From: Candidatus Nanohalarchaeota archaeon | Lineage (GTDB): Archaea > Nanohalarchaeota > Nanosalinia > Nanosalinales > JAFCCC01 | Reading direction: 5' to 3' | Length of the DNA stretch: 64,000 bases | Assembly (NCBI GenBank): GCA_017610385.1 | Contig: JAFCCC010000002.1 | Span: 32,001 to 96,000, forward strand | In this document: positions 26,524-45,843 of the stretch, piece by piece | Position numbering within the stretch: position 1 is the stretch's first letter | Layout: each line of letters opens with the position of its first letter | The notes under the pieces: generated by a model | The model's database searches: none | Told to the model about the DNA's origin: nothing | Seen by the model: the letters and a program-made list of their open reading frames with translations, nothing else | Made by a program: the position numbers and the translations under genes

Positions 26524-27006
26524 ATGATGAGAATTAATCCTCGTATTGAATTTGTTCTTAAATTTACTGGAATTACTTTGGGATTATTTACATTGTTTTT
26601 CTTTACGCGCAATTCCTTGAAGTTTTTGCTTTCAGGAACTGCGTGGATTCTGAAAGGTTTATTGTTTATTTTTGGAATTAATTCAAAAGTTGTTGGGTGG
26701 ACTATTGTTTTTCCTAATGTGAATTTTAGTGTGATTTATGCTTGTACTGCAATTTTTCCTATTATAATTTTTATTGCGGCAATTATGAGCTATAAAGCAG
26801 AACTAAAAAGTAAAGGTTTAGCTATCTTGGTTGGTGTTCCTCTAATTTACCTTCTAAACTTGCTTAGATTACTTGTACTTTCTTTGGTTGGAATGAAATT
26901 CCCTTCTGCTTTTCAATTTATCCATAGTTTTTTGTGGGAATCTATTTTCCTTATTTTTATAATTCTAATGTTTGTATTTTGGGTGAAAAAATATGCAAAA
27001 GAATGA
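26524..27006 (+). CDS. Archaeosortase/exosortase family transpeptidase (XrtH/ArtB-like)
   Basis: Multi-TM with the Cys-Arg-His set: VIYACTA, LNLLRL, FQFIHSFLWE. Confidence 0.85.
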   Translation: MMRINPRIEFVLKFTGITLGLFTLFFFTRNSLKFLLSGTAWILKGLLFIFGINSKVVGWTIVFPNVNFSVIYACTAIFPIIIFIAAIMSYKAELKSKGLAILVGVPLIYLLNLLRLLVLSLVGMKFPSAFQFIHSFLWESIFLIFIILMFVFWVKKYAKE

Positions 27007-27553
27007 AATTTTAAAAAAACTTAAAATTTTGAAAAAATTGAAAATGTTTAAAAAAGGTAAATTGTTTGAGAAGTTTGAAAAATTGCCGTTTATTGTGAAG
27101 TTTTTTATTTACTTAATACCTCTTTTTGGGCTTTGGTATGTAATTGGACTATATTATGTTAAGATAATTATGCTTCTCGTTAAAGAATTTCTTTCAATTG
27201 GTGGCTATTCTTTAACAAATATGGGAAATATGATGTATTCTGTTATTTCAAATGGATTAAGAATTCGACTGGATATGAGTTCCTCTGCCTTAATTGACTT
27301 TAATATAGTGCCTTTTTTTGCCTTATTATTTGCAACAAAAACAAAATGGAAAAGAAAATTAAAGTTCAGTTTGATTGGTTTTTTTGTTCTTTTACTAATG
27401 CACGCAATTACATTTTCAGTGTATGTTCCATATTTATTAACTCAGTCAGAAGGGTTATATTTTGTCTATAATCTAAGTGTTATTTTAGGTCCGGCATTGC
27501 CGTTCATACTTTGGTTTTTAATTGCGTTTCCTAATGAAAAAGCCAAGATTTAA
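26993..27553 (+). CDS. Exosortase-associated membrane protein
   Basis: Overlaps the sortase gene; about four TM; NIVPFFALLFAT..KWKRK..LLLMH, exosortase-like but without the catalytic Cys. Confidence 0.6.
   Translation: MQKNEILKKLKILKKLKMFKKGKLFEKFEKLPFIVKFFIYLIPLFGLWYVIGLYYVKIIMLLVKEFLSIGGYSLTNMGNMMYSVISNGLRIRLDMSSSALIDFNIVPFFALLFATKTKWKRKLKFSLIGFFVLLLMHAITFSVYVPYLLTQSEGLYFVYNLSVILGPALPFILWFLIAFPNEKAKI
27514..27544 (+). repeat. Direct repeat, left copy (3' end of gene 26993-27553)
   Basis: GTTTTTAATTGCGTTTCCTAA-TG-AAAAAGCC, matching 28651-28680. Confidence 0.9.
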
Positions 27554-28636: not shown

Positions 28637-28650
28637 TCGTAACTTTCATT

Positions 28651-28680
28651 GTTTTTAATTGCGTTTCCTAACAAAAAGCC
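28651..28680 (+). repeat. Direct repeat, right copy
   Basis: GTTTTTAATTGCGTTTCCTAA-C-AAAAAGCC; 21 bp identical to 27514-27534. Confidence 0.9.
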
Positions 28681-29672: not shown

Positions 29673-29685
29673 TAGAATATATTTT

Positions 29686-29910: not shown

Positions 29911-29914
29911 AAGT

Positions 29915-30388: not shown

Positions 30389-32857
30389 TTACTTTTTCCC
30401 GACAAAAAAGTAACCAAAACCTGCAATTCCTAAGAATAAAGAGACCAAAATAATAGGACTCATTACAGGAACTTCTAATGGATCTCCACCACCAAACGGA
30501 GGATCTGCTAAATCGTCTAAAGTCGGTGTTGTTGTGGCTGTAACTGTAATAGTTATGCTTCCGTCTCCATTTAAAACTTGGTTAGAACATAGACCCCAAG
30601 ATTCAGTACCTTTATTCCACCAGTACATTTTACTTCCACCAGGATTCTGGAAAGTTATGTCTAGGCTAGTAATGCCTGGATCAACATATGGACCTGGTTC
30701 ATATTTTACATCAAAGAAGTTACTTGCACCAGAGAAAACTGCGCTATCTGTCCAAGGTCTATTTTGATAAGTTATTAAGTCAAGGTATCCGGTTCCTGCG
30801 CCAAAAGCTTCAACGGTAATTGAACCATCACCACTTGTTTCCGGAGTTCCTACCTCGATAAGCATTCTCTCTGGACCAAAACTGCCTTGCACTACTGCCG
30901 CACCCAACCAAGGTTCATAATCTACATTCGTGCTTACTGCATTGCCAGTACCCGAACCTTCTCCAGAGGGACCTGTATCAGAACCCCACCAATTGTTTTC
31001 TGCATTAACAAGTGGTCCGGTACTGGAAATTCCATAAACATCATTTCCGATAACATTATTGTACTTTGCAACAACAACGCTTGTATCTGTGGTACTATAA
31101 CCAACAGCAATTCCGGTAGTTGAATCTGAGATGGTGTCACCAATAATTGTAGCCTTTGTATTAGAACCCCAAGCGGTTGTAACCAATATCCCAGCGGAAG
31201 TTGAACCATCAACACTTGCTACGCCTTTACAATTAGTTATTGTACAACCCTCAACTTTTATATCTCCCTCATTTCCTACTTCAAATCCGTAATCAAGGAA
31301 ATCACCGATACCTTTTCCTGTGTAAGTACAATCTTTGATTAATGTTCGTGCATCTGGATTAAATGTAAAAACGCCGATTCTTTGTATATTTTCAAACGTA
31401 CAACCGAGTATTTCAACGTATTGACCATAATTATTGATTGCGCGACCGTGATATTGACTAGTATGTTTAATATTTCTAAAATCACAGTTTTCCACTTTGC
31501 CTCCAGTACTATCTACATGATAATGAATGGCTGTGCGGACATTTTTCCCGGTTCCGTCAAATATTAGATTCTGGAAAATTACGTTTGCTCCAGTTACTTG
31601 GAACCAGCCTCGACCATTTACACCAATTTCATTATTTAAACCAGTGTTTTCTGTTGGGGTGATTAGTGGTTTATTTGAAGAATCTCCCAGAATTGTTAAG
31701 TCTTTGTCAATTATACTAATTCCTTCGTTATACGTCCCTGCTGCAACATTAATCGTGTCATCATTAATTGCTTGCTCTATTGCATTCTGAATATACGTGT
31801 AATGATCATTTGTAACAGGCCATTCAACAGGTAAATACCAAATGTTTCCAGTTATTTCTGTATTAGGATCATTTGGATTTCTTTCAGAGGTATAAAACAA
31901 ATATGGACTTCCTAATGCATCTGTAAATCCTGTTGGCCACATATCAATCCAAACATTTGAACCATAACTGGCGCTAGTAATGTCAACCTCTGTGCCAGAA
32001 GACAATAACGTATTCAAAGAGGTGCCAGTTTTTGCTTTGATCCATTGTTTTGGACTCACCCAAGGAGCATAAGCTGCAACATACTTTGTGCCAATTTTGT
32101 AAATGGTTGGATCATAAGGTCCAGATTCTGTAGCAGAATCTATTTGATTCCACACGGCGCCACCCCACTGATAAATATCTTGGTCTCCGCTGTCTGCCCG
32201 AATAAAATAAAGATTGCTTCCTTCGCAGTAAAATTTGGCTGTCCCGTAATTATTGGTTATGTCATACTCAGAACTCCAACTAGTAGTATAATATTTTGAT
32301 TTCCAATTATTGCCTAATTGGTATGCAAACCACAGTTTATTATCACAATTAATTGCAGCAAAATGTGCTGCGCCATCTGCCAGCCCTAATTCAATTATAC
32401 TTTCGCTCCAAGTTACGCCACCATCATTACTAGACCATTGATATAAAGTCGCATCAGCACCTACATCTACAGAAGCATAAACCCTAACATATCCATTAAA
32501 ATATGCAGAATCTGTTTCTCCTTGATAAATATTTGCATTGTGCGGTACATCTATTCTCGTGGGGGTTGCTGTAGCCAAATTTGAAATTGTCGATGCTTTT
32601 TTATAATACAGTTCATAATCGTGCGTATCTGGATCAGTGGGATTAGGATTCCCATAATTTCCAGTTACAGTAGCAGAACGTCCATAAAATAGCCAATAAT
32701 TAGAACCATCATAAATTATAGATTGTCCTCGTTCATAATGTTCATTATTGGTAAGTTGAATAGGTTGACTTACGTCAATAGTCGCCGCATTTACTGTAGC
32801 AACCATGATTAGAAAAGAAAATAAAAAGAATACTGAAATTAGTTTTTTAGCTACCAT
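30389..32857 (-). CDS. Surface protein (beta-propeller-like N-domain, beta-helix) with a VPXXXP-CTERM sorting signal
   Basis: Signal peptide; BNR-like SNDGGVTW; IQNAI..TINVAAGTYNE and NAENNWWG beta-helix motifs; C-terminus VPVMSP-IILVSLFLGIAGFGYFFVG-KK. Confidence 0.85.
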   Translation of the reverse strand: MVAKKLISVFFLFSFLIMVATVNAATIDVSQPIQLTNNEHYERGQSIIYDGSNYWLFYGRSATVTGNYGNPNPTDPDTHDYELYYKKASTISNLATATPTRIDVPHNANIYQGETDSAYFNGYVRVYASVDVGADATLYQWSSNDGGVTWSESIIELGLADGAAHFAAINCDNKLWFAYQLGNNWKSKYYTTSWSSEYDITNNYGTAKFYCEGSNLYFIRADSGDQDIYQWGGAVWNQIDSATESGPYDPTIYKIGTKYVAAYAPWVSPKQWIKAKTGTSLNTLLSSGTEVDITSASYGSNVWIDMWPTGFTDALGSPYLFYTSERNPNDPNTEITGNIWYLPVEWPVTNDHYTYIQNAIEQAINDDTINVAAGTYNEGISIIDKDLTILGDSSNKPLITPTENTGLNNEIGVNGRGWFQVTGANVIFQNLIFDGTGKNVRTAIHYHVDSTGGKVENCDFRNIKHTSQYHGRAINNYGQYVEILGCTFENIQRIGVFTFNPDARTLIKDCTYTGKGIGDFLDYGFEVGNEGDIKVEGCTITNCKGVASVDGSTSAGILVTTAWGSNTKATIIGDTISDSTTGIAVGYSTTDTSVVVAKYNNVIGNDVYGISSTGPLVNAENNWWGSDTGPSGEGSGTGNAVSTNVDYEPWLGAAVVQGSFGPERMLIEVGTPETSGDGSITVEAFGAGTGYLDLITYQNRPWTDSAVFSGASNFFDVKYEPGPYVDPGITSLDITFQNPGGSKMYWWNKGTESWGLCSNQVLNGDGSITITVTATTTPTLDDLADPPFGGGDPLEVPVMSPIILVSLFLGIAGFGYFFVGKK

Positions 32858-33029
32858 TACCCCCATCAAATAAGTGTATTGTTTTTAGTGTTTAAAACTC
32901 TGTGTAAAGGATTCGTAGTGCGCGTAAGTTCTGCCTATATTATATATATAAGAACTTTTTGGTTCTAAATGAAATGAAGCTTCTCATAAAGTTTATATAC
33001 TGGGCAAGGCAGAAGTAATGTGATCAAAA

Positions 33030-33818
33030 ATGAATAGGAAATACATACCCTTATTTTTAGTTGTTTCATTATTGTGCGCAAGTTTTGTGGCCGCGGAAAA
33101 TACTAATGGAATGAATAATGTTGCTAATATGTCTAACACGACTACAAATGTAACTTCAGGAAATTCTGGGGCAAATGTAACTTCTGCTGTACCTCCTACT
33201 GCGATTGTAAATGCTACTGCTGTTTTAAATAGCACTAAAAAGCAAGTCAATACAAAAAATCAGACTCGTGAAAGAAACGAAAGTGCAATTAAAGCAATCA
33301 ATATTTCCAATATAAGAATAAAGGCGAAAACAGTAAGAGAGTATAGACAAATAATTCAAGAAAGAAAGCAAGTTATGAATCAAACTTTGATTGGGATAAG
33401 TGCCAGAAAAATAAAAATTTACAAAAATCAGAATCAGGTTAGGGAAGCTGTTCATAATCTGTTGGCTTTAGAAGATCTTGCAGGAGGAATAGGCAAGAAT
33501 ATCTCTAAAATTGCACGCGAATTTAATAATTCTGTTCAAAAAACCATAAACGCTGAAGAAAAAATTCAAAATAGAGCACCGTTATTGAGATTTTTTGCAG
33601 GTGGAAATAAAAAAGCAACTGAAGAACTGGAAGCAGAATTAACTCAAAACAGAATAAGAATGGAGAAATTAGTTCAATATCGGGAAAGACTTCAGCCAGA
33701 ATTAAAAGGGCTCTTAAATGAACAAATAACTCAGATTCAACAAGAACAAACTCGGTTAACTGAATTGGCACAAAAAGAGAAAAAGAGCAAGGGGATATTC
33801 GGTTGGCTCTGGAAGTAG
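33030..33818 (+). CDS. Secreted coiled-coil protein
   Basis: Signal peptide, N/T-rich linker, AVHNLL..GGIG..IA and GIFGWLWK terminus; GAAGTAATGTGA upstream. Confidence 0.75.
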   Translation: MNRKYIPLFLVVSLLCASFVAAENTNGMNNVANMSNTTTNVTSGNSGANVTSAVPPTAIVNATAVLNSTKKQVNTKNQTRERNESAIKAINISNIRIKAKTVREYRQIIQERKQVMNQTLIGISARKIKIYKNQNQVREAVHNLLALEDLAGGIGKNISKIAREFNNSVQKTINAEEKIQNRAPLLRFFAGGNKKATEELEAELTQNRIRMEKLVQYRERLQPELKGLLNEQITQIQQEQTRLTELAQKEKKSKGIFGWLWK

Positions 33819-33975
33819 ATTCAGCTCAATTTTTATTTCTTTAAGTTTTTATATTCTTTTAGTTAGTAGCCCATTGAGAATTAGTTCAATGCAATCATTT
33901 TCAAAAAGGTCTAAGTTTGTTAAGTATATTTAACATATGTAAAAGAGACTTTACACTCGTTTAAACAAGTTTGGG

Positions 33976-34830
33976 CTATTTTTTTAAACTTGTATATTTT
34001 TCTTCGATTTGTTTCTTGATCTGATCAGCCATGAATTCGCCACCGTAGAAATCAACCTTGGACAAAATAGTTAATTTATTTGCAACAAAACGAGCCATTG
34101 CACCTCTTTTTTCTTTTCTGATGCCATTTATTTTTGGATAAAGAAATAAAATGCCGTGTTTTGGTGCTTTTCCTTGTTCTTTTAGGTATCTAAAAAGGGC
34201 TTTTTCTGCACCCAAAACCTGAATAGTTGAAGAAGGCATTCTCGCTAATTTTTGCATAGACCCCGCCAGACTAAGTAAGTGGGCAGCTAAATTTTCGCCT
34301 AAAATATATGATACATTGGGCATAAGTTCTTTAGCAAGTTCTGAAACCTGTTTTTCTACTTCGTCATGAAGTTCTTTTAACTCTTTAATTTTGAATTCAA
34401 ATTTTCTTCCTACATAAGATGTTTCTTTAACATTTTTTAGAGCAAGTAATCTTTCTTTTAATGGGTTAATTGAATTGTCTAAAGCTTGTTGAAGTTTAAT
34501 CAACTCAATTAAATATAAATCTTCAGGTAATGACTCGTTAATTTTCAGAGAAGTATAATTTTGCGCTATTTTTTGTAGTTTATGATAATAATCTTTTTCA
34601 TTTTTCACTATGTTTTCCTGCAATGCAAAGGCTCTAAAATCGAAATCGCTATGATCAAGTTCTCTTATATTCGGATATTTTTTCACAAGGTCTTTCACAA
34701 AGTTGCTCTTTTTTAATAGAATTTTAGCTGCTTGTTCTGGTTCTTTCGGAAGTGGTTTGAATTCGTGAACTTTTCCCTTCTCATTAAAAACAAACGTACC
34801 AAGAAAATTTGTGAAGGATTTAAATTTCAT
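33976..34830 (-). CDS. nop5: Box C/D sRNP protein Nop5 (Nop56/58)
   Basis: MPN..LAGS..LARMPSSTIQVLGAEKALF..PKHGILF. Confidence 0.93.
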   Translation of the reverse strand: MKFKSFTNFLGTFVFNEKGKVHEFKPLPKEPEQAAKILLKKSNFVKDLVKKYPNIRELDHSDFDFRAFALQENIVKNEKDYYHKLQKIAQNYTSLKINESLPEDLYLIELIKLQQALDNSINPLKERLLALKNVKETSYVGRKFEFKIKELKELHDEVEKQVSELAKELMPNVSYILGENLAAHLLSLAGSMQKLARMPSSTIQVLGAEKALFRYLKEQGKAPKHGILFLYPKINGIRKEKRGAMARFVANKLTILSKVDFYGGEFMADQIKKQIEEKYTSLKK

Positions 34831-35005
34831 AAAAATAAATAAGATTAGAATTGTTTTAAATGCGTTTGTTCAAATGATAAATTATCTGAGTTTTGATGAA
34901 GTGAAAAATTCTCAGAAAAACTTTTCATAAAACTAAATTATATTGATTTTTTATATTTTTTAGTCTTTTGTAACTTTTTTATAATAGTCTCACCATAATA
35001 CTTTT

Positions 35006-35209
35006 ATGAATACTCTGAGCAGAATTATCACTGGAACTTTTATGATTATTTTAGGAATGTTTTTAATTGCGCTCGGTTTTTCTGAATGGAGTATATTGCT
35101 GTACGGAATTCCAAGTTTTGTTCTTGGAATTTTCATTCTTTTTCATAAAAATGAAGATTATATTGAAAAAATAAAAACTAAACCATATGGAGGTAAAAAA
35201 ATAAAATGA
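35006..35209 (+). CDS. Small two-TM membrane protein
   Basis: Two hydrophobic helices followed by NEDYIEKIK; overlaps the next gene. Confidence 0.7.
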   Translation: MNTLSRIITGTFMIILGMFLIALGFSEWSILLYGIPSFVLGIFILFHKNEDYIEKIKTKPYGGKKIK

Positions 35210-35529
35210 CAGATATACTAGTTACAACAGGAAATGAAGCTCCTGGAAAGAAAATCATTAAGATCCTTGGCATCGTCAAAGGAAGTACAGTAAGAGCAAG
35301 AAATATTGGTAGAGATATTGGTGCAGGATTTAAAAGTCTCGTCGGAGGAGAAGTAAAAACATATACCGGTATGACTAAAAATGCAAGAGATGAAGCATAT
35401 AATAGAATGGTTAATGAAGCAATAGATATGAATGCTGATGCAATTATTGGTGTTCGATTTGCAACTTCGATGGTAATGCAGGGCGCTTCTGAAATGCTTG
35501 CATACGGAACTGCAGTTAAACTTAATTAG
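35206..35529 (+). CDS. YbjQ/UPF0145 family protein
   Basis: LGIVKGSTVRARNIGRDIGAG..GGE..YT..ADAIIGVRF..AYGTAV. Confidence 0.92.
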   Translation: MTDILVTTGNEAPGKKIIKILGIVKGSTVRARNIGRDIGAGFKSLVGGEVKTYTGMTKNARDEAYNRMVNEAIDMNADAIIGVRFATSMVMQGASEMLAYGTAVKLN

Positions 35530-35599
35530 AAATAAGGAGATTCAAGAACTCTATTCTTGAAACGAGGAGTTTTCGATAAGAGTTCCATAATAATAAAAA

Positions 35600-36502
35600 T
35601 TATTCATTAGAATATTCGTAATTCAAAACCAAATCTCCTTGATTATTTCTTATAAAAATAGTATCTTTTGCGTTATTCCAGACAGCATTGCACTGTCTTC
35701 CACTGCTGCACCAGTAAAGGCTTTTCTGTGCGTCTATACCACAGCCAGTATACAGAGTTACTTCTGAGTTGCTTTCGAGAACAAAATTTGGGAATACATA
35801 GGGATCTCTTGAAGTTTCATCTGTAACTCTCCAACCAGTTATATCATATGAAAAGCCACAACTATTTTTTAAAGTAATATATTCATCATTTAAATTGTTA
35901 CAGTCGTTTCCTTCTGCATTGGCGTGTATGTAGAAAATTCCAATACAAGTATCTGGTGAAGCGCCTTCCCAAATACATCCTTGTTGTTTTTGCGCTGTGT
36001 TCTCTGCTTCTTCTAATTCTTTTTCATATTTTGTATTAGGAGAAATTATGAATACTGTGGCTAGGCCTTCTTCCACAAGTTTAATGTTGATATTCTTGTT
36101 ATTTAAGAAAATGTAGCGTAAAAGTCTTCCATATTGATCTTTCGTATTCTCATCTGTTTCTAATCGTACTTCTTTGTTTTTTATTAACTCTTCCAATCTT
36201 TTTTTGGCTTCGTTATAACATTTTTGCCCTCTTTCAGGAGTATTTATCCCTAAAAGTCTTATTCTTTCTCCTGTTTCAATTTCTATTGTATCTCCATCTA
36301 TTATTCTTATCACAAAGGCTTTTTCAGCAGGGATCGTTTCAGAAAAATTGTTCTTAGCTATTATGTACCCTTTAGGACCATTCTGACCTTCGTTTGGAGT
36401 AGACCCCTTAATCAAAAAACCAATCAAAATTCCAATTAAAAGCATTAATAAGAAAGAGGCTGTTAAAATGCTTGTTTGTTTTCTGAATAACTTTTTCTTC
36501 AT
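35600..36502 (-). CDS. Membrane-anchored thermonuclease (SNase) fused to a lamin-tail domain
   Basis: IIDGDTI..RIRLLGINTPE..DQYGRLLRY; C-terminal NDEYITLKN..VWNNAKD. Confidence 0.9.
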   Translation of the reverse strand: MKKKLFRKQTSILTASFLLMLLIGILIGFLIKGSTPNEGQNGPKGYIIAKNNFSETIPAEKAFVIRIIDGDTIEIETGERIRLLGINTPERGQKCYNEAKKRLEELIKNKEVRLETDENTKDQYGRLLRYIFLNNKNINIKLVEEGLATVFIISPNTKYEKELEEAENTAQKQQGCIWEGASPDTCIGIFYIHANAEGNDCNNLNDEYITLKNSCGFSYDITGWRVTDETSRDPYVFPNFVLESNSEVTLYTGCGIDAQKSLYWCSSGRQCNAVWNNAKDTIFIRNNQGDLVLNYEYSNE

Positions 36503-36832
36503 TGTGTATTATTTTATTACTTTTGTTATTCATACGTGTTTTGGTAGAAAGTAAAAATTTAAAATCCTGTATTTGCTATAGGTCTTGCTAGCGTTTGCGA
36601 TCTTTGCATGACTACTCAAGCAATTGAAAATCATCCTAAAACTCGTTTTAAATAATGAATAAAATCGGCTTTGCCCATTAAGTCCTAAAAACGATTGACT
36701 TTTTGTGCAGGATGGATTTTTGCATAAAAAGTCATAGATTTCTATCGGAACGCCTCAGATACCTCTCAACTTGCATTTGAGTTAGAAACTGTTTGAACTA
36801 GGAATCTATCCAGAATTTTAAATATCTTTTAA

Positions 36833-37051
36833 GTGGATTTAAGGTATATGGAAGAAGAATTCTTAGAGCATTATCACAAACGAAGTAACGTAGAATCAAT
36901 AATGTACAGGATTAAATCTAAGTTTGGAGATGGGTTGTTGAGTAAAACTAAAACTGCACAGAGTAATGAGCTTTTGGCTAAAGTTCTGTGTCATAATATT
37001 TGTGTAGTTATCCCGGAGTTGTTTGAGTTGGGTATAAAACCCAACCTTTAG
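36833..37051 (+). pseudogene. IS5/IS903-group transposase C-terminal fragment
   Basis: HYHKRSNVESIMYRIKSKFG..AQSNE..CHN (Y-x2-R-x3-E-x6-K); N-terminal part absent. Confidence 0.85.
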
Positions 37052-37134
37052 GATTTTTTATCGAGACGCACATAAACCTACCGCGTAAATCATTTACATC
37101 AGCTTTTTATCATTTTATACCGCTATATTAATTA

Positions 37135-38490
37135 ATGAAGATTGAGTTAAAACAAAAATTTGACTGTAAAAAAATAATTAAAGAATTAGATTGCTTGGTG
37201 AAATGTGCAGTTTCTCTTTTTGATGATTTTTCTTCTTGTCGCATCAATTCGATTCGCAATTCAAAGAAACTACAAAAACTTGAAACTATACTTCTTATAC
37301 ATTTTCTAGAAAAAACGAACTTTGAAAGCGTATTTGACAATATGAAAGCCAGTTATATCTATACGGATATTGTGGGTCACAATATATTTCATCACTTACT
37401 TTGTAATTTAGGTAAAAAGCAAATGGAACCTACCTTATCTAATTTACTTTTAGTTTGTGAAGAGAGTTTTAAGCAAATACGTCGCAAGCGCCCAAAAAAG
37501 TACAGTTATTATTTACCAACCAGAATTGAACTCGAGTTATCCAAAGGAAAAAAGAGCTACTTAAAAAAAATATTGAAAAATAAAATAGGCATAGAGATTA
37601 GTAGACCCTCTAAAAAACTTTTAGAAAGTATGCACCGCCCAAACCTCAAGGAATTATTTGATACTCGGCAAACAATTTTAAAATTAGAGGTACGAGCAAG
37701 AGATTACGCGTACGTTAATAAAATTTTGGATAGAAAAGTTTTAGCATTAATTGGTGCACTCGCCTTTACTATTAGTTACCAGAATAATCCGCTCATAGGG
37801 TTTCACGCGCCTAATAAATCTGAAATTCTAACTACCCCATTAGAAGATTATATTGTTATTGTAGAAGATGATGAAACTGTTGTTTATCCCGCGTCATCGA
37901 TACATTCCGTATTGCGGCGGGTGGTGGATAAAGATATTAGATCGGTTGGTAAATCCTTTTGGATAATTCACGACAGAGAGACTGGCAATTATAAATTTTT
38001 TAAGAAAATTTTAAACCTCTTAGCCAACCAGACACCAAAAATAAGATCAATAACTGAGAGTAAATTGAAACTTTATTTAGATGCAGTCACTGAAAAACAA
38101 CTAGAAATATCTTTTTTGAAATTTTGGGTAATTATAGAAAGCACAATAAAACTAAAAAATAAGAAACGCGGCGCAGTTGTGGTATCCTCCCTTAAAAAAT
38201 TACTTGCTGAAAAAGAATTAGAACCCTTGATAGATTCTTTATATGCAAAACGAAATTTACTAGTTCATGAATTTGAGGCAGATTATATTTCTCAACAAGA
38301 TAGGAGTTTAGTAAAGATTTTTGTAGATAAAATCATGTTATTTTTAATTGACCAACCCATAAAACTGCGGAATCCACAAGAATTAAAAATGTGGATAGAT
38401 AACGCATTTTTTTCAGATGAGGAGCTTATTAAAAGAAAAGATATTATAACTAAACTCCTTAAAAAAAGATTAAGTTCTAAAAATGGTTAA
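37135..38490 (+). CDS. HEPN domain protein (ApeA/MAE-like), cargo of the element
   Basis: C-terminal FLKFWVIIES...LYAKRNLLVHE (R-x4-H). Confidence 0.7.
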   Translation: MKIELKQKFDCKKIIKELDCLVKCAVSLFDDFSSCRINSIRNSKKLQKLETILLIHFLEKTNFESVFDNMKASYIYTDIVGHNIFHHLLCNLGKKQMEPTLSNLLLVCEESFKQIRRKRPKKYSYYLPTRIELELSKGKKSYLKKILKNKIGIEISRPSKKLLESMHRPNLKELFDTRQTILKLEVRARDYAYVNKILDRKVLALIGALAFTISYQNNPLIGFHAPNKSEILTTPLEDYIVIVEDDETVVYPASSIHSVLRRVVDKDIRSVGKSFWIIHDRETGNYKFFKKILNLLANQTPKIRSITESKLKLYLDAVTEKQLEISFLKFWVIIESTIKLKNKKRGAVVVSSLKKLLAEKELEPLIDSLYAKRNLLVHEFEADYISQQDRSLVKIFVDKIMLFLIDQPIKLRNPQELKMWIDNAFFSDEELIKRKDIITKLLKKRLSSKNG

Positions 38491-38694
38491 CTTCTTGTAT
38501 AAATCCAGTCATTAGGTTTTTATAATTTTGCAACAAACTATTACTATGATAAATATTATATCATTTATACTGGGTGGGTTTTCTATTTATTGTCTGTCTA
38601 TACTTACAGTGTGGGTTATAAGACAAATAGGGGATATCTCACCAAAAGATAGATTCTGAACCTAACTTTAATATTAGGTCTTTTTGAAGGGGTT

Positions 38695-39190
38695 ATGTTG
38701 AAAATAGATGTCGTTGCCAAGACGAATGATGGAACTCTTTATTCTATTATGGGTATCAGTTTCTCAAAAAAAGGAGATTTATACGTTTTTGATAAGGCGA
38801 AGGGGGGCGGCAAAGAAGTTTCATTATTCAATTCATCCTAGTGGTAAAATACACCTCAAACTAAATTGTAGAGATGTTGTTTTAAGATGAATTAGCAAGA
38901 TACCAATTCAACAGTTTAAAATACCCTGGACTTTAGGAAGTAAGCTTCTTGACATAAATGAGATTTCAGAGAAATATAAGGTATATAATTCTAGAAAAAA
39001 TAGAGATAGTTTTTTGGTGGACTTAACAAAATATCCTTATAAGAGGGTGTTGATGCAAATAACTCTTTTGACACGAAAAGTTCTGTTAGACTTTCAAAAA
39101 CAATATAAATATTATGAAAAGTCACAAGTTTATACTTTTGAAAATCAGCACATACATGTTGCACTATCTGTAAAAACCTACCCTAAATAA
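38695..39190 (+). pseudogene. Disrupted cargo gene with an HxSxHxSGxxH motif
   Basis: ATG 38695 (GAAGGGG SD); +1 shift near the A7/G6 runs (38766-38807); in-frame TGA at 38888-38890; the frame then stays open to TAA 39190. Confidence 0.55.
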
Positions 39191-39279
39191 ATACTTTTTG
39201 TGCAGAAGGCACTTTATGTGCAACGCCAATAAAATCAAAACCTTTATATGCTTAAAGCACTCAGTTCTTTCAGATTAAT

Positions 39280-39477
39280 ATGGGAAATGTAAGACCAAAT
39301 TTCATTAAGAGAATTGCAGAAGAAATGATTAAAGAGAATAAAGACGTTTTTACAGGAGATTTTGAGAAAAACAAAAAGATTCTTAATGAATTGGACGTTT
39401 TAGACTCAAAAGGATTACGAAACAGAATTGCTGGTCAAATTGTCAGAGATGTTTTGAATAAGAAATATCAAAACTAG
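39280..39477 (+). CDS. rps17e: 30S ribosomal protein S17e
   Basis: MGNVRPNFIKR..FTGDFEKNK..SKGLRNRIAG. Confidence 0.96.
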   Translation: MGNVRPNFIKRIAEEMIKENKDVFTGDFEKNKKILNELDVLDSKGLRNRIAGQIVRDVLNKKYQN

Positions 39478-39540
39478 TTTTCCTTTTTTTTAAATCTAAA
39501 TTTTCTTTAAAAGTCAAATTTTTCTTTAGAATTCAAATAA

Positions 39541-40014
39541 TTAACACCCGTATTTCCGTGCCCATTCTGAATCTCCAAAATCGCTTCGTTCACAATAATA
39601 AGTTAATATTTCTGCAAGCCCTTTTTTAAGTAACTGTTCGTTCAAGTTGATGCCTTTACAATAAATAACACCAATTCTTCGATCATAAGACATTTCTTGC
39701 TGTTTATCAATTAAAACTGTTGCAATACCTCCTATATTGCAAAGATCATGAGCTAATTTCGTTCCAGCCGCTTTAATTTCACCTTTTTCTGGAGTATTAA
39801 CTAAAGATAATCTTATTGGTATTTCGCAAACTTCTAAAGTATCTCCATCTCTAATTTGTGTAACGGGCCCCTTAATGTACTCTTCCGTAACAACACAATC
39901 TTGATTTTTTAGTGAACTAGTAAAAACAAATGCCACAACAAAAATCATAAACCCAAGAAATATTATCAATAATATTTTTACTGTTTCTTTCCATGGTATT
40001 TTTTGGAATTTCAT
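39541..40014 (-). CDS. Membrane-anchored thermonuclease (SNase) family protein
   Basis: N-terminal TM; DGDTL..IRLSLVNTPE..YDRRIG..LNEQLL..GLA. Confidence 0.85.
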   Translation of the reverse strand: MKFQKIPWKETVKILLIIFLGFMIFVVAFVFTSSLKNQDCVVTEEYIKGPVTQIRDGDTLEVCEIPIRLSLVNTPEKGEIKAAGTKLAHDLCNIGGIATVLIDKQQEMSYDRRIGVIYCKGINLNEQLLKKGLAEILTYYCERSDFGDSEWARKYGC

Positions 40015-40200
40015 AATAAGTTCTCTTGTGACTGTTTTTTATACCAATATAAGAAAATTGGTGAGTTGGGTTTAAATTTTTGTAGTTTTTTAAGAACGCA
40101 ACAACCAACCGAATTTCGGTCGCACCTCCCGCAGACGCAATATAACCTCTAGAAAAGCGATATCCTTATATTCTTTTGGCTATATACTTACCCTTATCAA

Positions 40201-40725
40201 GTGATTAAAATGGTGCAAGATGGGTATGATACTGAAGAAATTGGATTAAATGAAGAATCAGGAAAAAATTTAAGTTATGCAGTTAGTATTCGTGATTATT
40301 TATTAACTAATGGAACTGCACTTCGACAATTACAGGTGGGAACCGCATTAGCGGTACTTGAGAGTTTCTTAGAAGAAATAGCACCTTATGGGGCTCCAGA
40401 ATTAGGTGAGATTACCTATGAATGTATGAACGGTAAACGTTTACGAGATCAAACCCCACATACAGAAAGATTCAGTGATCCAGAACAAGTTTACAGCTAT
40501 GCAGGAAAAAACAATCATAGATTTAATCGGTTTACTGCCCCAGTTTATTTAAACAAAATCCCTATTTTTGTGGCTGATTTTGATAATCATGGAAAATTAA
40601 CAATAACAGCAAATAATCCAACAGATAATCCTTTATGCGAAGCAGACTTGGATCATATTTGGTCAGAAATATGTTCTGAAGAGGTTTTAGGTAACATTTC
40701 AGCAAGTTTTATGCAAAAAGATTAA
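40201..40725 (+). CDS. Hypothetical protein
   Basis: 174-aa acidic ORF; start may be ATG 40210. Confidence 0.6.
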   Translation: MIKMVQDGYDTEEIGLNEESGKNLSYAVSIRDYLLTNGTALRQLQVGTALAVLESFLEEIAPYGAPELGEITYECMNGKRLRDQTPHTERFSDPEQVYSYAGKNNHRFNRFTAPVYLNKIPIFVADFDNHGKLTITANNPTDNPLCEADLDHIWSEICSEEVLGNISASFMQKD

Positions 40726-40783
40726 AAAGAAAGAAGAAATGGACATTACATAAAAATATAAATTATGTTGCGAAACAACAATT

Positions 40784-41227
40784 ATGTCTGAAACTGTAGG
40801 TATACAACCCGGATTCATACCAAAAATTCCAGTTGAAGCGTATAAAAGAGATAATTGTGTGAATGCTATACGTAGTGTTCTTGACGGAGGACGAGTTACA
40901 GAATATAGATTGGCTCAAATCCGACAGCTGTTAGATACAATAAATAATTCTTTTGAAGTACATGATGCTTATAAAACGTTAAGTATAGATAACACCCCAA
41001 AAGAAGCGATAAAACAATATTTGGTTACGTTAACTTGGTATACTAAACTTTGCAAAAGAGAACCTGTCATTGAATCCACCGTAGAAAAATATGTGGCTGC
41101 TTTAGGGAATCTTCAACAAACTCTCACGGCCCTATTAAAAAAAGAAAAAATTACAACAGAAGCTGCAGAGATACTTGAATCATATATGAAGGAATATGTA
41201 TGTGAACCTTTGAGTTCACCAATATGA
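40784..41227 (+). CDS. Hypothetical helical protein
   Basis: 147-aa ORF. Confidence 0.6.
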   Translation: MSETVGIQPGFIPKIPVEAYKRDNCVNAIRSVLDGGRVTEYRLAQIRQLLDTINNSFEVHDAYKTLSIDNTPKEAIKQYLVTLTWYTKLCKREPVIESTVEKYVAALGNLQQTLTALLKKEKITTEAAEILESYMKEYVCEPLSSPI

Positions 41228-41273
41228 AAATAAATTATTTCTAACGAGAAAAAGGAAAAAAGAAAGAATTGGT

Positions 41274-41477
41274 TTATCTTATTGCCAATTCAATATCCTC
41301 TCTTTTAATAGTTCTTCTTTTTGCATGCCGTGATGCCCTTAGTGCTTCATCAGCTACTGCTTGTGCCATGTCTTCTATAATTTCTCTTACTGCGGCAACA
41401 GCATCTTCAGAAACTCTTTCGGCTCCTGCATTTCTCATTAATCTTTCAAGAGGTGCTAATGGTAAAATTTTCTTCAT
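41274..41477 (-). CDS. Archaeal histone (HMf family)
   Basis: LPLAPLERLMRNAGAERVSEDA..HAKRRTIKREDI; AGGTGA SD. Confidence 0.96.
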   Translation of the reverse strand: MKKILPLAPLERLMRNAGAERVSEDAVAAVREIIEDMAQAVADEALRASRHAKRRTIKREDIELAIR

Positions 41478-41772
41478 TTTAAGTCACCTATTCCTTTTAT
41501 ATTTAATTCGAAGACATGGTTTATATAGTTTATTGTAATATGGTTCCAATTAGACCTTTAAATAAGATATTTCCTTGAATTTGGCGTTTTATTTTGTACT
41601 TTGAAAAGGATAACGGCAGTGGAAGTGACAGCTACCGAAACCTTTATATACTGGACAAAGATAGTATAAAACTACTCTTAGGGACGGATTTAGTCTATCA
41701 TATATTCTCCAGAAGATAAATTTATATAAGGTTAGCTGGAACTATATATGTACTACTTTGGGGGAAATACAA

Positions 41773-42771
41773 ATGGGTCAAGAATTTGAAATCGCAGGTG
41801 AAGAAGAAATCATGGAAGATACCACTCCTCGTTCTGAAGAACCTAAAAAATCAGCATCTAAACTAAAATGTCCTGATTGTGGTTGTACTGAATTTAAAGA
41901 AGATCGAGTTAAAGGTGAAGTAGTTTGTACTCGTTGTGGTTTAGTTTTAGAAGATAATATTATTGATGAAGCACCAGAATGGCGAGCTTTTGATGCAGAA
42001 CAAAGAAATCAAAAAGCAAGAGCTGGAGCTCCATTAACGTATACAAAACATGATATGGGTGTTTCGACTGAAATTGGTATGGGTCTTGGAGAACTTTACA
42101 AAGTTTCTGGAAAGAAAAGGGCCCAATATTATAGATTAAGAAAATGGCACAAGAGACTTACTAAATCCAAAGATAGGAATTTGGGTTTTGCTTTGTCTGA
42201 ATTAAATAGATTAATTTCTCATATGAGCTTACCAAAAACAGTTCACGAAGAAGTAGCTCGTTTGTATGAAAAAGCAGTTGATAAAGGATTAGTTAGAGGA
42301 AGATCAATGGAAAGTGTTATCACGGCTTTAATATATATTGTAGCAAGAAAACAAGGTACTCCAAGAACTTTAGACGAAATTAGTGAAGCATCTGACATTG
42401 AAAAAAGAGAAATAGGAAGAGCTTATAGATATGTTGCAAGAGAACTTGGATTAAGAATTTTACCTGCTAAGGCTCAAGACTATCTACCTAGATTTTCAGC
42501 TAAACTTCAACTTTCAGGAGAGGTTCAAGCAAGAGCCAGAAAAATCATCCAAGCTGCGAAACTAAAGGATCTTTTATCGGGTAAAGGACCAACTGGTGTT
42601 GCCGCGGCCGCTTTGTATATTGCAGCAGTACTAGAAGGAGAAAAGAGAACTCAAAGAGAAGTTGCAGACATTGTTGGCGTGACTGAAGTTACAATTAGAA
42701 ATAGATACAAAGAATTAGTCGATAAGTTGGGTTTAGAGGAAGAAGTCGAAAAGCGAAACGAGGAAGCTTAA
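41773..42771 (+). CDS. tfb: Transcription initiation factor IIB
   Basis: Zn ribbon CPDCG..CTRCG, PEWRAF, two cyclin repeats, VTEVTIRNRYKEL. Start re-called at ATG 41773. Confidence 0.97.
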   Translation: MGQEFEIAGEEEIMEDTTPRSEEPKKSASKLKCPDCGCTEFKEDRVKGEVVCTRCGLVLEDNIIDEAPEWRAFDAEQRNQKARAGAPLTYTKHDMGVSTEIGMGLGELYKVSGKKRAQYYRLRKWHKRLTKSKDRNLGFALSELNRLISHMSLPKTVHEEVARLYEKAVDKGLVRGRSMESVITALIYIVARKQGTPRTLDEISEASDIEKREIGRAYRYVARELGLRILPAKAQDYLPRFSAKLQLSGEVQARARKIIQAAKLKDLLSGKGPTGVAAAALYIAAVLEGEKRTQREVADIVGVTEVTIRNRYKELVDKLGLEEEVEKRNEEA

Positions 42772-42772
42772 A
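42749..42772 (+). repeat. Direct repeat, left copy (tfb 3' end)
   Basis: AAAAGCGAAACGAGGAAGCTTAAA; 22/24 identical to 43748-43771. Confidence 0.9.
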
Positions 42773-43184
42773 TCTCAGTTAAATATTTTTCTTTTAGGTT
42801 TTTTCTCATTGCAAAAATTTTGAGTAAAAGCAATTTACCTTGTTCAAGATCTAGTTTTGTTCCATAATAGTTTATGCCATTTCGAATATATCTAAATTTG
42901 TCAAAATCTTTGAAATTAAAATTTTCTAAAATAGCATTTAGTAATTCACCAACACACACATGAGATAAAACCTTATAGCCATTTAAAACGCATAACGCAT
43001 CTAAAATCTCTCTCAAAGAATCGTACGCCAATGAAACATACGCTGAAACAGAAATCTCAGTTATTTTTGCCAACTTGATCGTTTGTTCTTTTGAATTCGA
43101 CATTTCAGTCAGAGATTTTACAAGTTCTAGATTTACTCTAGTTTTTTTTATTACACCTTTCCGAAAACACTCGTCTAAATCCAT
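42768..43184 (-). CDS. HEPN domain protein
   Basis: AYDSLRE..GYKVLSH..RYIRNGINYYG; coupled to the MNT gene. Confidence 0.85.
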   Translation of the reverse strand: MDLDECFRKGVIKKTRVNLELVKSLTEMSNSKEQTIKLAKITEISVSAYVSLAYDSLREILDALCVLNGYKVLSHVCVGELLNAILENFNFKDFDKFRYIRNGINYYGTKLDLEQGKLLLLKIFAMRKNLKEKYLTEI

Positions 43185-43699
43185 TTTATCGCTCCTTGCA
43201 AAACTAGCCCATTAAGAATGTTATTTATCAGATGTTTGTTTTTTATTTCTTTTAAATCGGTCACTGCAAAAATTTGAAGTTTTCGTCCCAATAATTGCTC
43301 AAATTTTTTCAGTTTTGGAAATTCTTTTGTGGTTTCTGAAATAATCACAAAATCAAAATCACTTGTTTCTGTATCTAAACCGTCTGCAGTAGAACCAAAT
43401 AATATAATCGTAGGTTTTAAATATGTTTTATTTAATTCTGCAATCAGTCCACACGTTTTTATCTTTCTTATACTATAATATACTTTTAAATCTCGATAGG
43501 AATCACTTTCAATATTCGCCTTGTAAAGTTTGAGAGTTCTTTCTTGTCTTGTTTGTAAAATGTGAAGTTCATTTAATTTTTTCAAATTTTTACTGGCGGT
43601 AGCAGGCGCTATTTTTGAAATCCTGGCAACCTCTCTTACATTAAATTCGCAATTTGGTTCTTCAAAAAATAATCTTAATATGTTTAATATTTTGAACAT
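43175..43699 (-). CDS. HTH-fused minimal nucleotidyltransferase (MNT antitoxin)
   Basis: FNVREVARISKIAPATASK; LFGSTADG....SDFDFVI. Confidence 0.88.
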   Translation of the reverse strand: MFKILNILRLFFEEPNCEFNVREVARISKIAPATASKNLKKLNELHILQTRQERTLKLYKANIESDSYRDLKVYYSIRKIKTCGLIAELNKTYLKPTIILFGSTADGLDTETSDFDFVIISETTKEFPKLKKFEQLLGRKLQIFAVTDLKEIKNKHLINNILNGLVLQGAIKWI

Positions 43700-43718
43700 A
43701 TGTTCATTTTTATAAACA
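43681..43718. promoter_or_regulatory. Tandem inverted-repeat operator over the MNT start
   Basis: TGTTTA-N6-TGAACA (43681-43698) and TGTTCA-N6-TAAACA (43701-43718); central perfect palindrome TGAACATATGTTCA. Confidence 0.6.
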
Positions 43719-43747
43719 CTTATTTAAATAGATTTGTCTTTTGATTA

Positions 43748-43771
43748 AAAAGAGAAATGAGGAAGCTTAAA
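43748..43771 (+). repeat. Direct repeat, right copy
   Basis: AAAAGAGAAATGAGGAAGCTTAAA; still encodes KRNEEA*. Confidence 0.9.
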
Positions 43772-43800
43772 ATTCTTCAATTTAATTTACATATTTGAGT

Positions 43801-44028
43801 ATGGACTTTAAAAAAATTCGGAGAATTTTAGATAGAGTAGATTCTATTGTAGAGCCACGTGAAACTTTGATTTATGGCGCGATTAATGTATTTAGTGGTG
43901 GTGTTGTATTTTATGGCCTTTCTTTTGGTTCACCAGAGGAATCTCAAGCTTTGATTAATCTCGTAATACTAATTGGCGCTGCAAGTTACGGTGCAAGCTA
44001 TGGTAAACTAATCTCTAAAAAATACTAA
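43801..44028 (+). CDS. Small membrane protein
   Basis: Two hydrophobic segments; ATG at 43801. Confidence 0.55.
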   Translation: MDFKKIRRILDRVDSIVEPRETLIYGAINVFSGGVVFYGLSFGSPEESQALINLVILIGAASYGASYGKLISKKY

Positions 44029-44059
44029 TTTTAAATAGAATCTGCTTCTTACAGTTCTT

Positions 44060-44572
44060 ATGCCACAATTTATTCGTTACCCGCAAAAAAGACCTAAGAA
44101 AAAGAAAACATGGGTACAAAAAATGAATTCATACAAAGATTTGCCTAAAATTCAAGAGATGAGTGGAAAATTAAAAGAGATTCATGGTTCAGGAAGAATT
44201 TTGCTTCCTGCCCCGTCAGATATTTATGAAATAATGAAAAGTATTCCAGAAGGAACTATAATTACAATTGATCAAATTGGTGAAATCTTGAAAGAACATT
44301 ATAAAGTGGATGTTGTGGATTTAGTTCGTTTAGGTTTATTTGCTAAAATATGTGCTCATGCGTCCCAAGAAAAGCGAAAATTAGATCATAGTGTATTTTT
44401 TCCATTTTGGAGAACCCTGAAAAGAGATGGAAGTTTAAATCCAAATTATCCCGGCGGAATAGCTATTCAGAAAAGACTATTAGAAAGAGAAGGTCATTTA
44501 GTGGTTAAAAGAGCCACTAAATTTATTGTTAAAGACTATCAAAAAACAATGTTTGAATCTGGAGAACACTAA
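44060..44572 (+). CDS. MGMT DNA-binding-domain (alkyltransferase-like) protein
   Basis: IPEG..IT..I and PFWRTLK.DG.LN..YPGG..QK.LLE.EG; no active-site Cys. Confidence 0.8.
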   Translation: MPQFIRYPQKRPKKKKTWVQKMNSYKDLPKIQEMSGKLKEIHGSGRILLPAPSDIYEIMKSIPEGTIITIDQIGEILKEHYKVDVVDLVRLGLFAKICAHASQEKRKLDHSVFFPFWRTLKRDGSLNPNYPGGIAIQKRLLEREGHLVVKRATKFIVKDYQKTMFESGEH

Positions 44573-44606
44573 TGATTTGTCTTAGACTTTCTTTTTAGTT
44601 AATTCA

Positions 44607-44897
44607 TTAAAGTGCGTCTTTGACTGTGCCTGTTTTTTCTTTAAAGTTAATTCCATAAGAACTCATTGCACTTTCCATATTTGGACCAAATGCGCCTGCA
44701 ATAACTAACTCTACTTTTTTGTCCTTAAGTACTTTAGCTACTCCAAAACCTGCACCGCCACCCCCCATTCGAAACGGATTTTTTATTGTTTCTACTAAGG
44801 TTCCATTCTCGAAAATTAAGTAGAATGGAGATCTACCTGCCTGTTGACTTATTTCAGAGTCCTCTTGATCGGATAATGCTGCTATAGCTATTTTCAT
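44607..44897 (-). CDS. NifB/NifX (FeMo-co biosynthesis domain) family protein
   Basis: MKIAIA..GRSPFYLIF..NP..GGGAG..VIAGAFGP. Confidence 0.88.
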   Translation of the reverse strand: MKIAIAALSDQEDSEISQQAGRSPFYLIFENGTLVETIKNPFRMGGGGAGFGVAKVLKDKKVELVIAGAFGPNMESAMSSYGINFKEKTGTVKDAL

Positions 44898-45418
44898 TTT
44901 TTCACCCCCACAAACTTTTCTAAAAGATATCCATTAATTATTGAAAAGATAATTGTATATATTGCTAAAATGAATGTAAATGTCCAACCAAAATAAAGAA
45001 CCAACACAGGTAGTAAGGGAATTTTAATTGAGCGATTATACAAAAATGTGGATATTAATGCTAAACGCATTCCTTTTTCTTTAAGTTCACTTAGTAGTGG
45101 ATACCATAGGTAAATTGGACCAGTAGATAATATCCCACCAATAATTGCTATAACCCAGCCTTTGATTTTTGATTTTTGCCCGAGAAAATTCTTAATTTGC
45201 TTTGGTTTTATGAATAAACTAGTTAGGAAAAGTAAAACAATAACTCCTGCGAACGTTGGAAGTATTTTTAAAAATAACCCGCCCGAATAGATAAAAGCGC
45301 GATAAACCAAGTTGGGAGATAAAATAAAAAGGACTAAATAAAGCAAAGAGATTCCAAATACAAAAAGCATTGTACCGGTTATTCTTTCTTTTAATTTCCT
45401 TAATTTATTTAATTTCAT
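44894..45418 (-). CDS. Permease half (DUF318/ArsP-like)
   Basis: GGILSTGPIYLWYPLL..L.EKGM; multi-TM. Confidence 0.8.
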   Translation of the reverse strand: MKLNKLRKLKERITGTMLFVFGISLLYLVLFILSPNLVYRAFIYSGGLFLKILPTFAGVIVLLFLTSLFIKPKQIKNFLGQKSKIKGWVIAIIGGILSTGPIYLWYPLLSELKEKGMRLALISTFLYNRSIKIPLLPVLVLYFGWTFTFILAIYTIIFSIINGYLLEKFVGVKK

Positions 45419-45843
45419 AGTAACCCCAACGTAAAACTCATTAATATTGCAATTACAATAGCTGCAACAAAACTAATTAAATTTCTAAATATCGCAAATT
45501 TCCGTCCTAACATTAAACTTTCAGCAGGGAATTGAACAAACCCAACAGTCACCCATGCAAGAATAAAAGCAAGTACTGCAAGCAAACTGATTCCATTGTT
45601 CAATAACTCACCACCAACAATGTAAGAAGTAATTGGATTGCCTGCGGCTACACTACCTATTGACGCACCAATTATAGGATCTAGAATTATGTTTTTGGTA
45701 AAAATTTTGGAATAAAATTCTTTTGGAACTGCCACAAAAACTATAGAAACTAATAGAACCATTGCAATTAAAATTGGAATTGTTTTTTTTAGGTTATTCC
45801 AAGTTTTTATACCAGCATCTTTAAAATCTAAAGTCATAATCAT
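45415..45843 (-). CDS. Permease half (DUF318/ArsP-like)
   Basis: GNPITSYIVGGELL..G..AWVTVG..PAE..LG.KFA..RN. Confidence 0.8.
   Translation of the reverse strand: MIMTLDFKDAGIKTWNNLKKTIPILIAMVLLVSIVFVAVPKEFYSKIFTKNIILDPIIGASIGSVAAGNPITSYIVGGELLNNGISLLAVLAFILAWVTVGFVQFPAESLMLGRKFAIFRNLISFVAAIVIAILMSFTLGLL

Follow-up and report, generated by a model that had tools for sequence, protein, structure and literature searches.

The end of tfb is duplicated around an MNT-HEPN gene pair

The window analyzed here is a 64,000-nucleotide (nt) stretch (positions 32,001 to 96,000) of contig JAFCCC010000002.1 from the Candidatus Nanohalarchaeota archaeon assembly GCA_017610385.1, a genome of 788 kb and 33% G+C in 18 contigs, and our subject is a two-gene cassette at the 3′ end of its gene for transcription factor B, tfb (41758..42771, + strand). 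The tfb product is a full TFB with both the TFIIB repeats (E = 1.3e−44) and the TFIIB zinc ribbon (E = 5.6e−16), and TFB orthologues are found in all 41 genomes searched (40 relatives and the window's own). The last seven codons of tfb (KRNEEA and stop), together with one base on each side, occur twice as a direct repeat of 24 nt. The left copy, AAAAGCGAAACGAGGAAGCTTAAA (42749..42772, +), is the working end of tfb, and the right copy, AAAAGAGAAATGAGGAAGCTTAAA (43748..43771, +), is a displaced tfb end that also reads KRNEEA and stop and lies 23 nt ahead of the next gene. The copies are spaced 999 nt apart and agree at 22 of the 24 positions. Both mismatches, CGA/AGA (Arg) and AAC/AAT (Asn), are synonymous, which confirms the original prediction of a duplicated tfb end with silent changes only. 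The similarity is bounded on the 5′ side by the preceding codon (GAA versus AAA) and on the 3′ side one base past the stop codon, and its longest identical run is 13 nt.

The interval between the copies holds a 138-amino-acid (aa) open reading frame (ORF), a 174-aa ORF, a 48-nt leader with a palindrome, and nothing else. The 138-aa HEPN-like gene (42768..43184, − strand) stands tail to tail with tfb, and its stop codon overlaps that of tfb inside the left repeat. The 174-aa gene (43175..43699, − strand), which overlaps the start of the HEPN-like gene by 10 nt, encodes a winged helix-turn-helix (wHTH) part followed by a minimal nucleotidyltransferase (MNT) domain (PF01909, E = 4.2e−8; PF18765, E = 4.4e−7); we refer to these two genes as HEPN2 and MNT2. 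No Rfam family was matched between 26000 and 45000, and no transposase, integrase or terminal inverted repeat was found inside the repeat-flanked unit among its ORFs, Pfam matches and listed inverted repeats. The unit thus has direct repeats on both sides and no mobility gene inside. Of the content originally read as HTH-MNT, HEPN and an operator, the two genes and the leader stand, while the operator amounts to an inverted repeat over the MNT start, TGTTTA-N7-GAACATATGTTC-N7-TAAACA (43681..43718), which spans the start codon. The palindrome folds no better than its shuffles, and we regard it as a candidate operator.

The residues of the G-S ... D-x-D motif of MNT2 (G102, S103, D114, and D116) are invariant in an alignment of 17 sequences. 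Its 138-aa partner has no Pfam match of its own but aligns with the profile of the MNT partner-gene family (hhalign probability 98.2%, E = 5e−14); 10 of the 16 members of the partner alignment, which includes the 138-aa protein, match the HEPN family PF05168, and the matches of the family profile in the PDB are HEPN-domain proteins. The HEPN RNase motif is R-x4-6-H. All 16 HEPN-like partners carry instead R-N-x3-Y, with an invariant Tyr and no His at that place. Because Tyr replaces the expected His, RNase activity of the HEPN-like partner is in doubt, and the protein may have a non-canonical chemistry or be an inactive RNase or toxin. The cassette resembles the HepT/MntA type VII toxin-antitoxin systems in being a two-gene MNT and HEPN operon with the G-S ... 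D-x-D motif, as these are described in PMC7641770 and PMC11586414. It differs from them in the N-terminal winged helix of its MNT and in a PF05168-like partner with the R-N-x3-Y motif, and its toxin-antitoxin function is a prediction.

The tfb repeat is not a chance likeness. The best direct repeat between the 490-nt flanks of the cassette scores 18, and the maximum of 200 shuffles is 15. A score of at least 18 was reached by 11 of 3,000 random 932-bp windows of the same genome; these fall in six regions, several of which are real repeats and one of which is the interval with the tfb cassette itself. Across the whole genome, about 50 repeat pairs score at least 18 at a spacing of 300 to 6,000 nt. 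From this scar we infer that the cassette was inserted at tfb.

A second flanked cassette and other bracketed units in the same genome

The genome has two full MNT-HEPN pairs, and both are flanked by direct repeats. In cassette 1, the left repeat GTTTTTAATTGCGTTTCCTAA (27514..27534, +; 21 nt) lies within the 3′ end of a gene for a 186-aa membrane protein (26993..27553, +), and an exact right copy (28651..28671, +) follows 15 nt past the HEPN stop, at a spacing of 1,137 nt. Between them are a wHTH-MNT gene (27580-28170, +), whose product is 29% identical to MNT2 (E = 3.3e−10), and a HEPN gene (28163-28636, +) with a match to PF05168 above the cut-off (E = 3.1e−5). Cassette 1 was therefore as originally described, and the two cassettes bear out the claim of two independent MNT-HEPN loci with unrelated target sequences and opposite orientations. 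The ancestral tail of the membrane gene is left undecided by its only homologue, which has a short tail and is 34% identical (genome G001). The membrane gene and an adjoining one for a 160-aa membrane protein (together 26524-27553 of the window) are paired likewise in G001, and the 160-aa protein resembles, by eye, an exosortase/archaeosortase-type protein.

The genome-wide repeat scan also brought up two units of other gene content. On contig C10 (1998-2633), a 24-nt repeat with one mismatch surrounds a 612-bp unit. In this unit are an 88-aa ORF, which looks RelE-like by eye and matches no Pfam family, and a weak match to RHH (PF01402) that stays below the cut-off at E = 0.003. The unit occupies the spacer between a putative patatin-like gene and a gene that by eye resembles GAPDH. 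On contig C6 (10388-12146), a 469-aa DUF234/ATPase_2 gene lies between two copies of a 62-nt repeat, one of which takes in codons 1 to 19 of the next gene; in the spare copy ATG has become ATA, and two further changes are silent. The upstream neighbor of this unit is a LuxC-type acyl-CoA reductase gene.

Further repeats were noted in the genome. A third wHTH-nucleotidyltransferase gene, on contig C14 (3905-4498, − strand; PF18765, E = 1e−8), is without a HEPN-sized partner. It adjoins the right-hand member of an imperfect 79-nt repeat pair (at 275 and 3554), between whose copies lie three unrelated genes (275-4498 as a whole). A hairpin-like unit of about 33 nt (ATTTTCGCTTAAGCCTTTTATTAAAAAGGCTTA) is present in copies at C9:6568-8151 and at C6:98 and C6:4313, some of them about 61 nt apart.

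Flanked cassettes recur in other archaea

The sets of genomes available at the level of phylum, class, and order are the same 70 genomes. An MNT2-like gene (E ≤ 1e−8) is present in 15 of them and gave 20 further loci, 16 of which were testable. Flanking repeats scored above all 200 shuffles in 4 of these 16 cassettes, and in 3 of 16 when locus L050, a CRISPR case, is set aside. The repeats of these three are termini of genes: a 96-nt repeat at L040 corresponds to codons 1 to 32 of the RFC gene and ends one base before the ATG, an 18-nt repeat at L046 corresponds to the end of the neighboring gene (...GDRCS and stop), and L054 has a repeat of about 46 nt with a 3-nt gap. At L050 (G032:C1:327813-331280), the flanking repeats were rejected as an insertion scar, being CRISPR repeats: the MNT-HEPN pair and a cas2-like gene (by eye) lie between 35-nt copies of CRISPR type, a layout as if the pair sat within or between CRISPR arrays.

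A wider scan, with an alignment of seven MNT sequences against one genome per species, found 80 loci, most of them in DPANN-type and other uncultured archaea; 69 of the loci have a HEPN-sized partner ORF, and in 55 the flanks are long enough to test. Repeats scoring at least 16 flank 9 of the 55 cassettes and 1 of 95 control windows (Fisher's test, P = 5e−4), and the enrichment over controls in other genomes that the original prediction called for is thus present. The controls were windows of equal size displaced within the same loci (1/45 and 0/50), and their sole match is the third copy of the repeat at L108. In eight of the nine flanked cassettes both copies lie at most 130 nt from the cassette ends, at a spacing of 1,011 to 1,198 nt. 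Two-gene flanked cassettes overall have a spacing of 996 to 1,198 nt, with the repeat abutting or overlapping the HEPN stop. One of the nine, L061, is taken to be the L046 locus because it has the same 18-nt repeat and the same 1,080-nt spacing.

The repeats correspond to the 3′ end of a neighboring gene in L133, L110, L061/L046, and L072 and to the 5′ end of one in L126, L081, and L121; the repeat of L103 is internal to the 5′ region of a gene, and that of L108 is intergenic. Their edges tend to coincide with start or stop codons. Repeat length varies from 18 to 96 nt (for example, 96 nt in L040, 83 nt in L081, 62 nt in the C6 unit, 52 nt in L133, and 40 nt in L126), and the target sequences of different cassettes are unrelated to each other. 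The matches at L118, L134, and L109 are weak and possibly due to chance. A tRNA gene as the source of the L103 repeat was rejected, as ARAGORN found none.

Several of these loci have further features of layout. At L108 (1267-4028), two units in succession, one of which is the MNT-HEPN pair, are delimited by three copies of a 26- to 49-nt intergenic repeat (TGTATAGTAAGCCCCATTTA...), an arrangement that resembles a cassette array sharing one site. At L081, an 83-nt duplicate of the start of a 454-aa gene brackets a 2-kb block with the MNT-HEPN pair. The word AAAGTGATAATCATGAATAAAA, a leader with a start codon, recurs at several gene starts near MNT-HEPN pairs in L081 (837, 924, and 1907) and L082 (79, 1075, and 2361), which belong to two different genomes. 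Loci L042 and L043 (G051:C7 and G029:C5), from different genera, share 2,283 nt at 98.9% identity, comprising the MNT-HEPN pair and its left flank, and diverge abruptly about 250 nt past the MNT start.

One cassette has empty sites in two relatives

Locus L126 of genome G071 is an insertion for which two relatives, G125 and G126, retain the empty site. The 98-aa and 215-aa genes that border it are 1.76 kb farther apart in G071 than in these relatives; the distance between the two genes in G126 is 136 nt, and in G125 the match that follows the 98-aa gene reaches to 13 nt from the ATG of the 215-aa gene. The extra DNA consists of a lone MNT-like gene followed by a 1,112-bp MNT and HEPN unit. The repeat on either side of this unit is 40 nt long and corresponds to positions −8 to +32 of the 215-aa gene; translated, the spare copy gives MLHIKPLETKD before it meets a stop.

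Just inside the unit lies a second copy of the target's promoter word, AAGATTTTTAAG, which occurs four times in the whole G071 genome and twice in each relative, one of the two being at the empty-site promoter. Because the unit contains both this promoter copy and the duplicated gene start, it has both sides of the homologous locus. L126 therefore fits DNA that came from a relative with the cassette between promoter and gene. Such a unit could have used the 40-nt stub to enter, whether in circular form (Campbell type) or by way of a single illegitimate joint.

In the relatives of G070, which carries L133, the site is not empty but is occupied by another gene, some 530 aa long, and a search of the relatives of G072 for L110 gave no match. 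The congeners of G010, the genome with the RFC locus, are without the cassette and without the gene beside the spare RFC copy, and at 74% amino acid identity they are too diverged to tell which RFC copy is native.

Proposed homology-anchored insertion and its alternatives

We propose that the 999-bp unit at tfb, which comprises HEPN, wHTH-MNT, the leader, and a single copy of the repeat, is a toxin-antitoxin cassette in minimal form and was placed at the end of tfb by homology-anchored, recombinase-free insertion, and we put the probability of this reading at roughly 0.45. The donor would most likely have been DNA of a near relative in which the cassette already stood beside tfb. This DNA would have paired with the recipient through a short stub of tfb, by way of host homologous recombination, and the other joint would have been made either by integration of a circle (Campbell type, or pop-in) or by illegitimate end joining (homology-facilitated illegitimate recombination). 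Both are routes in which one short homologous anchor becomes duplicated on both sides without a dedicated recombinase. As the stub is duplicated, either joint would leave two copies of it; tfb would remain intact, with its spare last 24 nt pushed downstream, and toxin-antitoxin addiction would then resist loss of the cassette. Relative to such cases the anchors here, which are found at gene termini, are very short at 18 to 96 nt, and the circle and the DNA uptake are hypothetical.

Homology-anchored insertion fits the flanked units as a group because they have no recombinase, unrelated targets, repeats of variable length (18 to 96 nt), and edges at start or stop codons, where the homology between relatives would end. 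At tfb, the spare copy comes from this lineage or a near relative, since none of the 29 relatives' TFB tails compared ends in KRNEEA. Three other pairs of copies look like two alleles of one gene: L040, with five synonymous and no non-synonymous differences (P = 0.003 under drift); the 83-nt repeat of L081, with five synonymous and one non-synonymous; and L121, where all six differences fall in one codon phase (P = 0.004). The last pair was left out of our automatic count because its ORF runs off the contig. The donor-allele end of the original prediction is in keeping with these three pairs and with the promoter copy in L126, which fit a stub from a homologous locus, while the tfb mismatches themselves cannot discriminate.

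A number of observations weigh against this reading. Two silent mismatches at tfb have P = 0.04 if change is random and P = 0.12 if the working copy changes only silently, and we cannot tell a donor allele from drift at that locus, as the mismatches fit both alike. Of 21 repeat pairs, the 15 with a copy covered by an ORF of 90 aa or more entered the codon count, weak ones included, and they total 18 synonymous and 20 non-synonymous differing codons. This tally lies above the random expectation (0.22; P = 5e−4) but not above that of in situ duplication followed by drift (0.36 to 0.40; P = 0.1 to 0.2). Given the 18:20 tally, divergence by synonymous changes only, as originally noted at tfb, is no general rule. 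The copies in L133, L110, L126, and L103 differ by replacements or stops, and the "replacements" in the spare copy of L133 include an Asp that two relatives share at that place. No repeat flanks 46 of the 55 testable cassettes, the short identical runs at tfb (13 nt) and cassette 1 (21 nt) offer little to RadA-type recombination, and at the RFC locus of G010 the working copy seems by eye to keep the congeners' upstream motif, with the spare copy in a low-GC stretch beside another gene, a less tidy layout. The genome also holds three tyrosine-recombinase genes, on other contigs, that could act in trans; the original prediction of an integrase-free route thus holds insofar as neither cassette has a recombinase gene and is weakened by these three.

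The search for traces of the event at tfb weighs on the same side. An empty site would be recognized by the tfb stop joined directly to AATTCTTCAATTT, and the original prediction had looked to relatives and to excised circles for a check; among the relatives and metagenome loci compared, neither an empty tfb site nor a circle junction nor a close relative was found. The host genes beyond the right repeat are one for a 77-aa membrane protein (43795..44028, +; likely start at ATG 43801) and, after it, one for a 170-aa protein (44060-44572) with a match to the DNA-binding domain of 6-O-methylguanine methyltransferase. The tfb loci of 29 relatives, the nearest of which has a TFB 82% identical, lack HEPN2, MNT2, and either downstream gene. 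A metagenome scan with the 170-aa gene gave two loci, of which the better (79% identical) keeps the 77-aa/170-aa gene pair and has a gene other than tfb upstream. A public sequencing run that contains 5% of the words gave only short contigs over 26500-45500, some of them 100% identical; these leave 42984-44251 uncovered, show no joint at either cassette, and so speak neither for nor against an insertion.

On balance, the most economical reading of the copies is a mixture, in which young pairs would be two alleles and older pairs would have a decayed spare copy. The spare copies with replacements, stops, or a lost start (L133, L103, and the C6 unit) are what one would expect if the cassette had entered a staggered or gapped break close to the end of tfb and repair synthesis had copied 24 nt, so that both copies were the recipient's own and diverged later, the working copy only silently. 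We consider this in situ target duplication somewhat unlikely. It would account for the variable repeat lengths (18 to 96 nt), for a codon tally within the drift expectation, and for a spare tfb tail that matches the lineage's own unusual KRNEEA end, and the analogous insertions of restriction-modification genes are described as long, variable target duplications (PMC2853133). The differences at L040, L081, and L121, however, are hard to reconcile with a freely drifting spare copy, and a simple target duplication leaves the promoter copy in the L126 unit unexplained. Site-specific recombination would explain the repeats in another way, as attL and attR sites. Either a larger integrative element would have been reduced by decay to its toxin-antitoxin core, or an integrase encoded elsewhere would have moved a miniature cassette in trans, in the manner of cis-mobilizable elements or of a homology-dependent integrase such as Int-pTN3. 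A gene end copied as a direct repeat is the textbook sign of an integrase target, the three tyrosine-recombinase genes could provide the enzyme, an archaeal integrase with low sequence specificity catalyzes reactions resembling homologous recombination (PMC5495485), and acquisition on mobile elements followed by streamlining has been proposed by Belot et al. 2026 (PMC13617665). Yet no flanked unit contains an integrase gene or a fragment of one between its repeats, and the units are uniformly minimal (996 to 1,198 nt, with the repeat at the HEPN stop), as random decay would rarely leave them. One sequence-specific integrase cannot serve all the units because their targets are unrelated, and we judge this explanation unlikely. 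Transposition in the usual form is not indicated either, as there is no transposase and no terminal inverted repeat at the edges, and the repeats are 18 to 96 nt long and variable.

It is highly improbable that the scar is a chance likeness due to AT-rich sequence or that a short repeat misled the assembly. Short A-rich matches are frequent in a genome of 33% G+C, and the genome-wide scan did yield some 50 pairs of comparable score. Against this stand the shuffles (0 of 200 reach the score of the tfb repeat, versus 11 of 3,000 random windows), the position of both copies exactly at the cassette edges, the same layout at cassette 1, and the enrichment in independent assemblies; an exact run of 13 nt, moreover, is in our judgment below the word lengths usual in assemblers.

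Relation to known insertions and toxin-antitoxin islets

The closest parallel comes from restriction-modification genes, for which insertion with long target duplication was described by Furuta, Abe and Kobayashi 2010 (PMC2853133) and earlier by Nobusato et al. 2000 (as cited in PMC2875022). As in that work, an addictive module without a mobility gene is flanked by direct repeats that duplicate a single-copy target, and the repeats are often over the 3′ end of a neighbor, variable in length, and commoner than at average genes (PMC2853133). The recurrent scar at gene starts and ends agrees with the homology-guided route to gene termini that the original prediction proposed, although this precedent means that the phenomenon is not new in kind. 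The cases differ in cargo, here an MNT-HEPN pair, and in host, here archaea; the hosts in PMC2853133 are mostly naturally competent bacteria, and no archaeal case survived the selection reported there. The repeats at tfb (24 nt) and cassette 1 (21 nt) are also shorter than the 30 bp that Furuta et al. took as their lower limit (PMC2853133), and several pairs here look like two alleles. In related cassettes, repeats of 31 to 96 nt exceed that limit. The trigger in the restriction-modification account, a double-strand break by the restriction enzyme (PMC2853133), has no counterpart in an RNase-type toxin. Our best reading is that the tfb scar would represent, for toxin-antitoxin genes in archaea, what insertion with long target duplication is for restriction-modification genes.

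The cassettes also resemble toxin-antitoxin islets, lone pairs between core genes (Ramisetty and Santhosh 2016, as cited in PMC5120126), whose mechanisms of arrival have been called poorly characterized (Belot et al. 2026, PMC13617665); homologous recombination at the genes on either side has been proposed as their means of spread (PMC13617665, PMC5120126). Like the islets, they have no mobile-element genes, and their minimal unit is a promoter/operator and two ORFs. The accounts of islets in these sources, which concern bacteria and type II systems, give no flanking duplication of gene ends. In the main texts of the literature searched, we found no account of toxin-antitoxin cassettes with duplicated gene ends on both sides.

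Implications

The observation at tfb is confirmed, and its interpretation is partly supported. As a generalization, which we offer tentatively and with some doubt, archaeal MNT-HEPN cassettes, and other small addictive or defense cassettes, may be minimal mobile units addressed solely by a short stub of a neighboring gene from their previous host; host recombination would place them at either terminus of that gene in a new genome, even where the gene is essential, as tfb and RFC are, rewriting the terminus of the gene with the donor allele and leaving the old terminus as a fossil. Homology-anchored insertion predicts empty sites, donor alleles, and perhaps circular intermediates in population metagenomes. 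A recurrent, countable scar, that is, a duplicated gene terminus that is sometimes allele-like, provides a handle on how lone toxin-antitoxin pairs settle between core genes, and it hints at how toxin-antitoxin modules spread without a recombinase of their own. Because the termini of essential genes such as tfb and RFC may be overwritten in this way, the scar is also relevant to gene-end variation in reduced genomes.

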